From a virus (taxonomy: Duplodnaviria > Heunggongvirae > Uroviricota > Caudoviricetes), in the IMG/VR virus record IMGVR_UViG_2695420643_000029: a DNA stretch of 21,877 nucleotides, one strand, 5' to 3'. Position numbers and translations under genes: made by a program. Of the stretch, positions 12,087 through 13,999 are shown one piece after another; positions within the stretch are counted from its first letter, which is position 1, and each line of letters begins with the position of its first letter. Under the pieces are notes generated by a model that did no database searches, was not told the DNA's origin, and worked only from the letters and a program-made list of their open reading frames with translations.

Positions 12087-12240
12087 TGTTAGCGATACAC
12101 ATATCAATGTAGATAAATATGTATTGTGGTTAAAGTTTGTTCGACTGGTTGACGAATTCGTGAAATCCCCTAAAGATTAGGTTTACAAAAATAAAATTTT
12201 GCGTAAAGATGAGCGGAGTTTTAAGAGAGAGGGATACCTT

Positions 12241-12891
12241 ATGCCGTCTGAACAGAATCTCCAACCGTGTTTTGAAATCAATCCTTGTTTGGATGAAAAA
12301 TCTGTTATCAATCTTCTTCAGCAATTTGCTAACGTACTTGGCGAATTATGGTTCCATCGCCATGAGTATGATGATAACTGGATTAATGGATGTAGGGCCT
12401 ATGGATGGATAAAAAACTTTCTTGTAAAAAATCATAAAAAACTCAAAGGAGTGGCGATTCTTTCAACACCTCTGAATTTTGTGTTTACCCTGAACAGGGT
12501 GCCGTTACAGTTTGTGACCGATAAACTGGATTCACCAAAAAAGAAACATCGCTTATGTAAAAATGATGTTGAGTGTCGTCAGTTATCTCTTTTTGAAGAT
12601 GATGTTAATTTTGAACATGATGTTACATGGCGTGTTCTGGCTGAAAAATTACCATCTGCAAATAAAAAAGATGAAGATATTGAACCTCCAACGTGGCTTT
12701 TAGCCCTGATAGGTTTTGATTCATCAAATAATGTAGTGAGTAGATACGAATTGGTGTCTAAAGTCCATGCTCCAGTACAAGCAGCTAATACTGACGTATT
12801 GCCAGAGGCCGTGGAAACACCACCGCTGAATTTGCAGCGGCGTGTTAAGAATGCGAAAAAAGCAGATAGTGATAAATATGGAACTATTTGA
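12241..12891 (+). CDS. Unknown protein, first gene of AT-rich two-gene cargo operon (candidate toxin/effector)
   Basis: 216 aa from first in-frame ATG (MPSEQNLQPCFEINPCLDEKSVINLLQQF...); GAGGG SD; stop overlaps downstream gene by 14 nt; no motif I can name. Confidence 0.7.
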   Translation: MPSEQNLQPCFEINPCLDEKSVINLLQQFANVLGELWFHRHEYDDNWINGCRAYGWIKNFLVKNHKKLKGVAILSTPLNFVFTLNRVPLQFVTDKLDSPKKKHRLCKNDVECRQLSLFEDDVNFEHDVTWRVLAEKLPSANKKDEDIEPPTWLLALIGFDSSNNVVSRYELVSKVHAPVQAANTDVLPEAVETPPLNLQRRVKNAKKADSDKYGTI

Positions 12892-13999
12892 TTCTATAGG
12901 TAATTATCGTGGTGACTGCTTAAAATTAGCTCGTCAGGCTAAAGGGGTTACGGGCGAAGAGCTTGCTACTGCTTTGGGGGTGACTCGGCAATTTATAAAC
13001 AAGTTAGAGCGTGGTTATCCCCCTTCATCTCAGATGTTGACAGCTCTTGCAGATTATCTGGATGTTAAAGAGTCGTTTTTCTTCACTGGAAGGAAATCAC
13101 CATTAGACAGCGAGAACTGCCATTTCAGAAGCAAGAGATCAAGGACGCAGTCCTTAACTAATAGTATTCTGGCTCGAGCTGAAATTTTGGAGCAGTTTGT
13201 AAAGTGTTTGGAAACAGAAATAGTTCTTCCAGAATTGAACTTTCCTGATACGTCCGGATTACCTTTGAACTCCGATGAAGATATTGAAAGAATTGCCGAG
13301 GCCTGTAGAAGGTATTGGGGTTTGGGGCTGGGACCGATATCTTCAATGGTTAATTTCGTGGAAAGTATTGGGGTTGTTGTTGCTCATGTATCTGGCGTGG
13401 ATGATCGTATTGATGCGTTTACTATTAATAGTAAACGCCCATTGATAATTAGAAATTCCGCGAAAAAGAGTGTGTGTCGATTTCGCTCAGATCTCGGTCA
13501 TGAACTGGGGCATCTTGTTTTGCATGAAGGGATTATAACAGGGGATAAAATTACAGAACATCATGCGGATTATTTTTCGAGCGCATTCCTTGTACCTAGA
13601 GTTTCGTTCGTTAATGAATTTCCTAAAATGCGAGGATCGCATCTTGACTGGAATGCACTAATTAATTTCAAAGAACGATGGAAAATCAGTCTTCGCATGT
13701 GTATTTATCGTGCTACGGTTTTGGGGCTGATTACGCCACAACAAATGAGAACGGGATTTATCCATCTAAATAAAAGAGGGACGATTAAAGGAGAGATGGG
13801 GGATGAGTTAATCCCTGAGGAAAAACCTCGCTTACTTTCCTGTGCAGTTGAATTGCTGGATATATCTTCTTGGAAGCAGATACTGGATATGTCGGGAGTG
13901 AGGGAACGCTTTGTTTCCAAAATGTTTGGAATAAGGCGCACACATGATGATATATCGAGTAATATTGTGCCTCTTTATAGATACAAAGACTTTGGTTAA
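12878..13999 (+). CDS. XRE-family HTH fused to ImmA/IrrE-type (COG2856-like) zinc metallopeptidase
   Basis: N-terminal HTH VTGEELATALGVTRQFINKLERG; HExxH motif HELGHLVLHEG at 13499-13513; 373 aa from ATG 12878 (alternative starts 12842/12851). Confidence 0.8.
   Translation: MELFDSIGNYRGDCLKLARQAKGVTGEELATALGVTRQFINKLERGYPPSSQMLTALADYLDVKESFFFTGRKSPLDSENCHFRSKRSRTQSLTNSILARAEILEQFVKCLETEIVLPELNFPDTSGLPLNSDEDIERIAEACRRYWGLGLGPISSMVNFVESIGVVVAHVSGVDDRIDAFTINSKRPLIIRNSAKKSVCRFRSDLGHELGHLVLHEGIITGDKITEHHADYFSSAFLVPRVSFVNEFPKMRGSHLDWNALINFKERWKISLRMCIYRATVLGLITPQQMRTGFIHLNKRGTIKGEMGDELIPEEKPRLLSCAVELLDISSWKQILDMSGVRERFVSKMFGIRRTHDDISSNIVPLYRYKDFG

Follow-up and report, generated by a model that had tools for sequence, protein, structure and literature searches.

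A Rac-like prophage of Escherichia coli with a probable RosmerTA-type toxin–antitoxin cassette as exchangeable cargo

The stretch of viral DNA analysed here (Caudoviricetes; IMG/VR record IMGVR_UViG_2695420643_000029; 21,877 nucleotides (nt) in all, hereafter the window) is a Rac-like prophage that lies beside ttcA in Shiga-toxigenic and other Escherichia coli, and it carries a two-gene cassette that is probably a toxin–antitoxin and anti-phage system of the RosmerTA type, held as exchangeable cargo. As defined by Millman et al. (2022, 10.1101/2022.05.11.491447), RosmerTA systems pair a zinc-peptidase antitoxin with a toxin whose function is unknown. Every sequence and architectural hallmark of such systems is present in the window: two adjacent genes with that of the putative toxin (rmrT) first, a putative antitoxin (RmrA) that combines a helix-turn-helix (HTH) domain with an M78 peptidase bearing an HExxH motif, and matches of the two proteins to RmrT and RmrA profiles. 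By analogy with the family, we infer that RmrT would be toxic, that RmrA would neutralise it, and that the pair would defend its host against phages. Both genes are already recognised by catalogue models, and the pair is a catalogued subtype of a system already known; since standard defence finders would flag the locus, the system itself is no discovery. What novelty remains lies in the biochemistry of this RmrT family, in a conserved candidate dual-box operator, and in a defined cargo slot flanked by the DUF977 gene and hokD.

The two genes, whose coordinates are borne out by both the listing of open reading frames (ORFs) and the raw sequence, and the parts of RmrA discussed below are placed as follows.

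12241-12891, plus strand: rmrT (gene 1), ATG start, 216 amino acids
12878-13999, plus strand: rmrA (gene 2), ATG start, 373 amino acids
12920-13078, plus strand: HTH_3 DNA-binding domain of RmrA, residues 15-67 (Pfam E 5.8e-13, above the gathering score)
13124-13129, plus strand: Phe83-Arg84 of RmrA, in the linker between HTH and peptidase
13361-13714, plus strand: Peptidase_M78 domain of RmrA, residues 162-279 (Pfam E 5.6e-13, above the gathering score)

The genes lie on the same strand and overlap by 14 nt, as an initial annotation made from the sequence alone had described them. That annotation had also seen an XRE-type HTH and an HELGH zinc-peptidase motif in gene 2, no recognisable motif in gene 1, and a likeness of the pair to RosmerTA, and each of these readings stood up to the profile, structure and alignment searches reported below. 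Longer in-frame starts are present (TTG at 12199 for rmrT, giving 230 residues; GTG at 12842 for rmrA, giving 385); both ATG starts are those of RefSeq, and homologues of both proteins align from residue 1. A Shine-Dalgarno-like stretch, GAGAGAGGGA, stands 5′ of the rmrT ATG. None stands 5′ of the rmrA ATG, which sits within the final codons of rmrT, and these two features together suggest that translation of rmrA is coupled to that of rmrT.

RmrA matches 14 RmrA models of PADLOC, best of all PDLC03943 (E 5.7e-107), and belongs to phrog_2439 in PHROGs. Its peptidase domain, in which the HELGH motif occupies residues 208-212 (nt 13499-13513) and is followed by a downstream Glu227, gives way to a C-terminal helical region. 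The residues H208, E209, H212, and E227 are invariant among 54 homologues that are 35-74% identical to the window protein. Invariant in the same 54 homologues is the Phe83-Arg84 pair of the linker, where H82 is at least 90% conserved; the linker is modelled with lower confidence (predicted local distance difference test, pLDDT, 63-76), and a role of Phe83-Arg84 as a docking or (auto)cleavage site is speculative. The predicted structure of RmrA finds its best match in CapP and resembles IrrE, while its HTH matches ImmR and CapH; the protein is also matched by the PADLOC models for capP (E 1e-11) and capH (E 0.0016). RmrA is a single-chain form of the repressor and peptidase pairs ImmR/ImmA, DdrO/IrrE, and CapH/CapP. 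As a separate observation, RmrA has a cysteine (Cys200, nt 13475-13477) 8 residues before HELGH, at a place where the experimentally verified RmrA has none.

That verified RmrA belongs to the RosmerTA system of E. coli OLC-716, which defends E. coli and in which a deletion of rmrA could not be transformed (10.1101/2022.05.11.491447). The two systems share their design: a toxin-first two-gene operon in E. coli, with an antitoxin of about 370 residues that joins an HTH to an M78 peptidase with HELGH...E. The toxin gene likewise lies upstream in the entries read from Table S11 of Millman et al. The two RmrA proteins align over 296 residues with 30% identity (E 2e-36), the HELGH and the downstream E...FxxxFLxP being aligned, and the Phe-Arg pair of the linker also occurs in the OLC-716 protein; they differ in the RmrA sub-model that they match, 03949 there and 03943 here. 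A second studied system, RosmerTA of Gordonia phage Kita (RmrT-D5/RmrA-D25; Ernits et al. 2023, PMC10440598), resembles the present pair in being phage-borne and in coupling an ImmA-type protease antitoxin to a toxin in which no domain is recognisable, and it confers a narrow anti-phage defence in E. coli (PMC10440598). A further relative is spr1629/spr1630 of Streptococcus pneumoniae, whose HTH-M78 antitoxin is matched over nearly its whole length: the NCBIfam model NF052239 (‘spr1629 family repressor/antitoxin’) aligns with RmrA residues 10-354 over model positions 2-368 of 377. The score of 162 bits falls far below the equivalog cutoff of 335 bits, so that RmrA is a homologue of that family and not an equivalog member. 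Published work ties the spr1629 family to clpX essentiality (10.64898/2025.12.09.693261).

RmrT matches the PADLOC RmrT model PDLC03929 (E 1.4e-18, 9-197 of 198 model positions), as do all 58 of the diverse family members that were aligned, and it falls within phrog_5786, which is labelled as of unknown function (E 6.6e-72). The protein has no match in Pfam or NCBIfam, and searches of Pfam, NCBIfam, and PDB sequences, with RmrT singly and as a family, returned no recurrent match. The initial annotation had proposed that gene 1 may encode an uncharacterised effector family; this is apt in that the family is biochemically uncharacterised and unrelated to the verified RmrT, and overstated in that it was already catalogued as RmrT under PDLC03929. 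With a mass of 24.8 kDa, an isoelectric point of 6.6, and a maximum 19-residue hydropathy of 1.2, RmrT is predicted to be soluble and to have no transmembrane segment. Its AlphaFold2 model (pLDDT 77, predicted template modelling score 0.70) consists of two N-terminal helices, a six-stranded alpha/beta core (residues ~10-172), and a low-confidence C-terminal tail (residues ~173-216) in which P178, P188, L198, R201, and G214 are conserved. Close homologues (35-66% identity) occur in Enterobacterales only, and the family as a whole ranges from Enterobacterales to Rhizobiales: a profile search of 1.84 billion representative proteins yielded 126 RmrT clusters (50% identity) at E <= 0.001, nearly all of about 200 residues.

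The sole fold signal of RmrT is a weak resemblance to the PD-(D/E)xK fold, which raises the possibility that the protein is a divergent nuclease of this kind, degrading phage and/or host DNA once released. Among the 58 family members a conserved D...(D/E)xK triad was not found, the catalytic motif thus being missing, and only P9 and D44 reach at least 90% conservation. At residue 79 (nt 12475-12477), moreover, the E. coli protein has Asn where at least 90% of its close relatives have Asp before strand 2, a position that is variable across the wider family. Because no triad is conserved and because of Asn79, we regard a nuclease as an unlikely, minority hypothesis.

Directly downstream of every rmrT homologue that could be placed, abutting or overlapping it, lies an rmrA: in Proteus, Xenorhabdus, Escherichia albertii, an Enterobacteriaceae metagenome-assembled genome (MAG), Serratia, and an E. 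coli paralogue of 40% identity. Across those loci RmrA is much better conserved (58-64% identity) than RmrT (35-42%). When the search began instead from RmrA homologues in Pseudomonas, Acinetobacter, and Mesorhizobium (41-46% identity), the immediately upstream gene in each proved to encode a member of the same RmrT family, with E-values of 1e-42 to 6e-54 that are partly circular because some of these proteins may be in the profile, the route of discovery being independent; the verified toxin scores E 1 against the same profile. A scan of genome contigs gave only 5 loci, and the wide alignment proved too diverse for this use. The surroundings of the pair change from host to host. It sits between replication genes and DUF1367 in Proteus, between antiterminator Q and the holin in Serratia, just after hok in the case of the E. 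coli paralogue, between insertion sequence elements in Pseudomonas, and near a deaminase and a RES toxin in Mesorhizobium. Such behaviour fits a self-contained mobile module and not a regulator of neighbouring genes; across Gamma- and Alphaproteobacteria the two genes are inherited together.

Conservation of the pair extends to its upstream region: in the 187 nt that separate rmrT from the left junction of the cassette, a short box occurs twice.

12147-12156, plus strand: box A, GGTTGACGAA, containing the −35-like TTGACG; candidate RmrA operator
12149-12164: 16-nt near-palindrome, TTGACGAATTCGTGAA, overlapping box A
12180-12189, plus strand: box B, GGTTTACAAA, second copy 33 nt after box A, containing the −35-like TTTACA
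12171-12180 and 12204-12213, plus strand: TAAAGATKAG twice, direct repeat D1 with a spacing of 33, −10-like

The consensus GGTTKACRAA matches the window twice, in each case 5′ of rmrT, against 0.23 matches expected, and nowhere else. It also occurs upstream of the rmrT homologues in 10 of 10 other loci, in most as pairs 33 nt apart, and nearly all of these matches fall within about 110 nt 5′ of rmrT on the coding strand. The spacing of the pair is exactly 33 nt (at most one mismatch) in Proteus, Xenorhabdus, Serratia, the E. coli paralogue, and Acinetobacter; single or otherwise spaced boxes are found in Pseudomonas, Mesorhizobium, and the MAG. Each copy of TAAAGATKAG stands 16 nt after a box, and an alignment of the upstream regions shows that homologues carry GCGAAAATAT at the equivalent place. 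Each unit looks like a sigma-70 promoter in which a spacer separates TTGACA from GCGAAAAT or TAAAGAT. Because the conservation reaches past the hexamer and the spacing is kept across classes of Proteobacteria, we read the boxes as putatively serving both as promoter(s) and as an operator for RmrA. They offer a concrete handle on a putative autoregulation by RmrA.

The structural kinship of RmrA, the operator-like boxes, and the invariant Phe-Arg pair in the linker would also suit another account, in which the pair is a regulatory switch responsive to stress or DNA damage and akin to ImmR/ImmA, DdrO/IrrE, or CapH/CapP. RmrA would then be either a self-cleaving repressor accompanied by a non-toxic gene 1 product or a regulator of neighbouring prophage genes. 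Those three systems, however, divide repressor and peptidase between two proteins, and their output is the derepression of other genes, whereas HTH and peptidase are fused here; and because of this fusion, together with the upstream toxin gene as constant partner, the pair is not CapH/CapP. Among the loci examined, no immune operon besides rmrT is a constant neighbour of rmrA: rmrT alone always travels with it, whatever the other neighbours may be. The prophage has cI/cro-like immunity genes of its own, located elsewhere and away from the cassette (RefSeq), the boxes within the window are confined to the region upstream of rmrT, and the antitoxin gene cannot be deleted in the family. A switch of this sort is, in our judgment, very improbable.

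The extent of the cassette, and the ORF that spans its left junction, are as follows.

12054-14008, plus strand: cassette-specific cargo DNA (promoter/operator region, rmrT, and rmrA), delimited by comparison with related prophages
11856-12086, plus strand: chimeric 76-residue ORF across the left junction, GC 0.563, a partial pseudogene in RefSeq

The region 12087-13999 has a guanine-plus-cytosine (GC) content of 0.395, against 0.478 for the whole window and about 0.50 in the flanks; it is the lowest-GC 1.9 kb of the window, at the 0.15th percentile among all windows of 1,913 nt. GC at third codon positions is 0.29 in rmrT and 0.35 in rmrA, compared with 0.46-0.63 in neighbouring genes. The cassette is foreign to the prophage in both measures, and the AT-rich block that the initial annotation had discerned is real. 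Its proposed start, right after the stop of the 76-residue ORF at 12086, was less exact: AT-rich cassette sequence does lie there, and the cassette DNA begins at 12054, inside that ORF.

The borders follow from comparison with related prophages. In five comparators, similarity to the window stops near 11845 and restarts at exactly 14009 in all five; this right junction (14008/14009) falls exactly where the Rfam match to sok begins. The left junction (12053/12054) was obtained from a second comparison and falls inside the 76-residue ORF. In relatives that ORF has 66 residues, its stop coming directly after ...CACCTGAA (window 12053). The first 66 codons of the window version are common to other prophages (87-92% DNA identity), the last 11 derive from cassette DNA, and the original stop was lost at the junction. 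The ORF marks the boundary of the cassette and stands outside the system. Given these two junctions, the unit is 12054-14008 and not 12087-13999.

The cassette fills a variable slot that has the DUF977 gene on one side and hokD/sok on the other. Four of the related prophages have as cargo there QueH, an alpha/beta hydrolase, or a protein with DUF4209 or DUF5677, and the fifth carries DUF551 with a short ORF and has a doc-family toxin just 3′ of hokD. Among 5,426 complete E. coli genomes, 31 contain the 1.9-kb cassette itself at 99-100% identity (all 31 copies at least 99% identical in DNA) and the rest lack it; places matching its flanks occur in 4,854 genomes. The view of this region as a hotspot for accessory genes (morons) is thereby upheld. 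The contrary case, in which the pair would be a conserved core part of Rac-like prophages with ordinary GC, is ruled out by the prevalence of the cassette, the other cargo found in the slot, and the low GC; the cassette is accessory, exchangeable cargo. The DUF977-hokD interval of Rac-like prophages is in this way shown to be a cargo slot with clean junctions. As a side observation, the slot (11846-14008 in the window) holds QueH, alpha/beta hydrolase, DUF4209, DUF5677, DUF551, DUF7167, or DUF4406 genes across the Rac-like/lambdoid E. coli prophage loci L006-L010, L028, and L029, and the DUF4209 and DUF5677 genes could be additional uncharacterised defence candidates.

Immediately beyond the right junction lies the hokD/sok locus (14009-14420).

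14009-14184: sok (Rfam match)
14179-14334: hokD coding sequence, with a mok-like extension from 14122
14403-14420: terminator-like hairpin of the locus

As hokD/sok is a type I toxin–antitoxin that adjoins the cassette, two unrelated toxin–antitoxin modules stand back to back. In Shiga-toxin-producing E. coli and O157 lineages the slot stacks RosmerTA against hok/sok, which bears on prophage-encoded superinfection immunity in these pathogens.

The same adjacency, together with the ralR/RalA of the same prophage, lends itself to a narrower account, namely that the pair is an addiction (post-segregational killing) module only, one that stabilises the prophage or the slot and has no part in phage defence. 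Growth phenotypes observed without phage agree with it: rmrA is essential in three Pectobacteriaceae (10.64898/2025.12.09.693261), and toxins of the RmrT type make clpP or clpX essential (10.64898/2025.12.09.693261; 10.1101/2020.05.25.114553). For the E101 toxin (WP_001179380.1), a T46S mutation suppressed clpP essentiality (10.1101/2020.05.25.114553), and Thr46, taken alone, suggests that the OLC-716 toxin, which shares it, may be of the same kind. As clpP dependence is tied to toxins of the E101/OLC-716 kind, it is not carried over to the present toxin. Defence, moreover, has been shown for one E. coli and one Gordonia-phage RosmerTA alone, each with a different toxin from the one described here. 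Yet both of these tested systems protected against phages, and the cassette occupies classical moron or defence slots in several prophages, the Mesorhizobium copy lying near a deaminase and a RES toxin; addiction and defence are, besides, compatible with each other. A role restricted to addiction appears improbable to us.

Several findings weigh against assigning the cassette to RosmerTA as a functional defence system. RmrT and the verified RmrT of OLC-716 align at a BLASTP E of 1.9, hhalign of the present RmrT family profile against the OLC-716 toxin gives a probability of 0.4%, and the OLC-716 toxin matches other PADLOC models (PDLC03935 and, weakly, PDLC03932); BLASTP, the PADLOC cross-scan, and hhalign together detect no remote homology between the two. 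In Kita, the C-terminus of RmrT is predicted to be membrane-localised, and the toxin depolarises the membrane (PMC10440598). The present RmrT lacks the transmembrane segment reported for the Kita toxin and is set apart from it by the published description, a membrane toxin of that type being ruled out by hydropathy. RmrT thus stands for a subtype that has no domain, transmembrane segment, or convincing fold match and that differs from both studied toxins. It follows that what is transferred from the studied systems in functional terms comes mainly by way of RmrA and the architecture. The E. coli RmrT also departs from its close relatives at residue 79, as described above. Among 50,697 isolated phage genomes, no match to the cassette DNA or to the RmrT protein was found, and for RmrA only distant HTH-M78 proteins of at most 39% identity; neither protein accession is mentioned in the literature searched. 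In the upstream region, a generic scan for promoters and terminators found sites no more often than in shuffled sequence and missed the conserved boxes. Measured against the generic consensus, the promoter is a weak one; since the scan scored neither of the −10-like sites, promoter function is deduced from conservation, as is the binding of RmrA to the boxes.

On balance, the RosmerTA-type reading remains the likely one, and a mechanism may be envisaged from it. The operon would be transcribed from its own box-containing promoter(s), and RmrA would be produced by translational coupling to RmrT. Dimers of RmrA would occupy the boxes by means of the HTH, thereby repressing their own operon, and RmrA would keep the soluble RmrT inactive by binding, by peptidase action, or by both, with the C-terminal tail of RmrT and the Phe-Arg linker of RmrA as candidate sites of contact or cleavage. 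A cue from phage infection might then shift the balance. CapP and IrrE are M78 peptidases activated by single-stranded DNA (PMC13228613, PMC10904395), the activation of CapP involving single-stranded DNA, an inter-domain groove, and a cysteine-switch loop (CapH/CapP: 10.1101/2022.04.27.489752; PMC13228613), and RmrA shares with CapH/CapP both the M78 peptidase fold and the XRE HTH fold. This analogy points to single-stranded DNA or DNA damage as a possible cue; a loss of RmrA supply is the alternative. Free RmrT, probably acting in the cytoplasm and not on the membrane, would arrest or kill the cell and so abort the infection, and stabilisation of the prophage, or addiction, could arise as a by-product. 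The outline is supported by what has been published on other RosmerTA members: the essentiality of rmrA where the system occurs, the need for clpP or clpX that toxins of this class impose, and the defence of E. coli against some phages by two systems.

A bolder form of this proposal appears rather doubtful. It holds that the PDLC03929 family of RmrT is a mechanistically new soluble cytoplasmic effector, perhaps with a degenerate restriction-endonuclease-like fold that binds without catalysis, and that RmrA is a fused sensor, protease, and repressor that reads tandem GGTTKACRAA operators spaced by 33 nt and neutralises or releases the toxin by cleavage at its own Phe-Arg linker or at the RmrT tail.

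The remainder of the window is that of a Rac-like prophage. RefSeq places in it intR, xisR, ralR, recET, kilR, ydaS/T-like and ydaV-like genes, DUF1627, DUF977, hokD, DUF1367, and lysis genes, and a number of small RNAs (sRNAs) accompany them.

1557-1735: RalA sRNA (Rfam, 219 bits), adjoining ralR
6584-6671, minus strand: C4 antisense RNA, in a prophage small-RNA cluster (6584-7049)
6696-6772, minus strand: isrK, same cluster
6999-7049, minus strand: DicF, same cluster
16547-16740, plus strand: STnc100, downstream of the DUF1133 gene
16741-16802, minus strand: anti-GcvB sRNA AgvB, downstream of the DUF1133 gene

With ralR/RalA, the prophage counts a third module of the toxin–antitoxin type. 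Calls of a tRNA disagree: ARAGORN detects none in the window, RefSeq places a tRNA-Met at about 16474-16544, and Rfam has a weak match (37 bits) at 16401-16460. A gene for a 648-residue DUF6645 protein (17024-18970) stands between that for DUF1133 and the holin gene and may itself be cargo; the equivalent region of the Serratia prophage, from the Q antiterminator to the holin, is where the RosmerTA pair sits.

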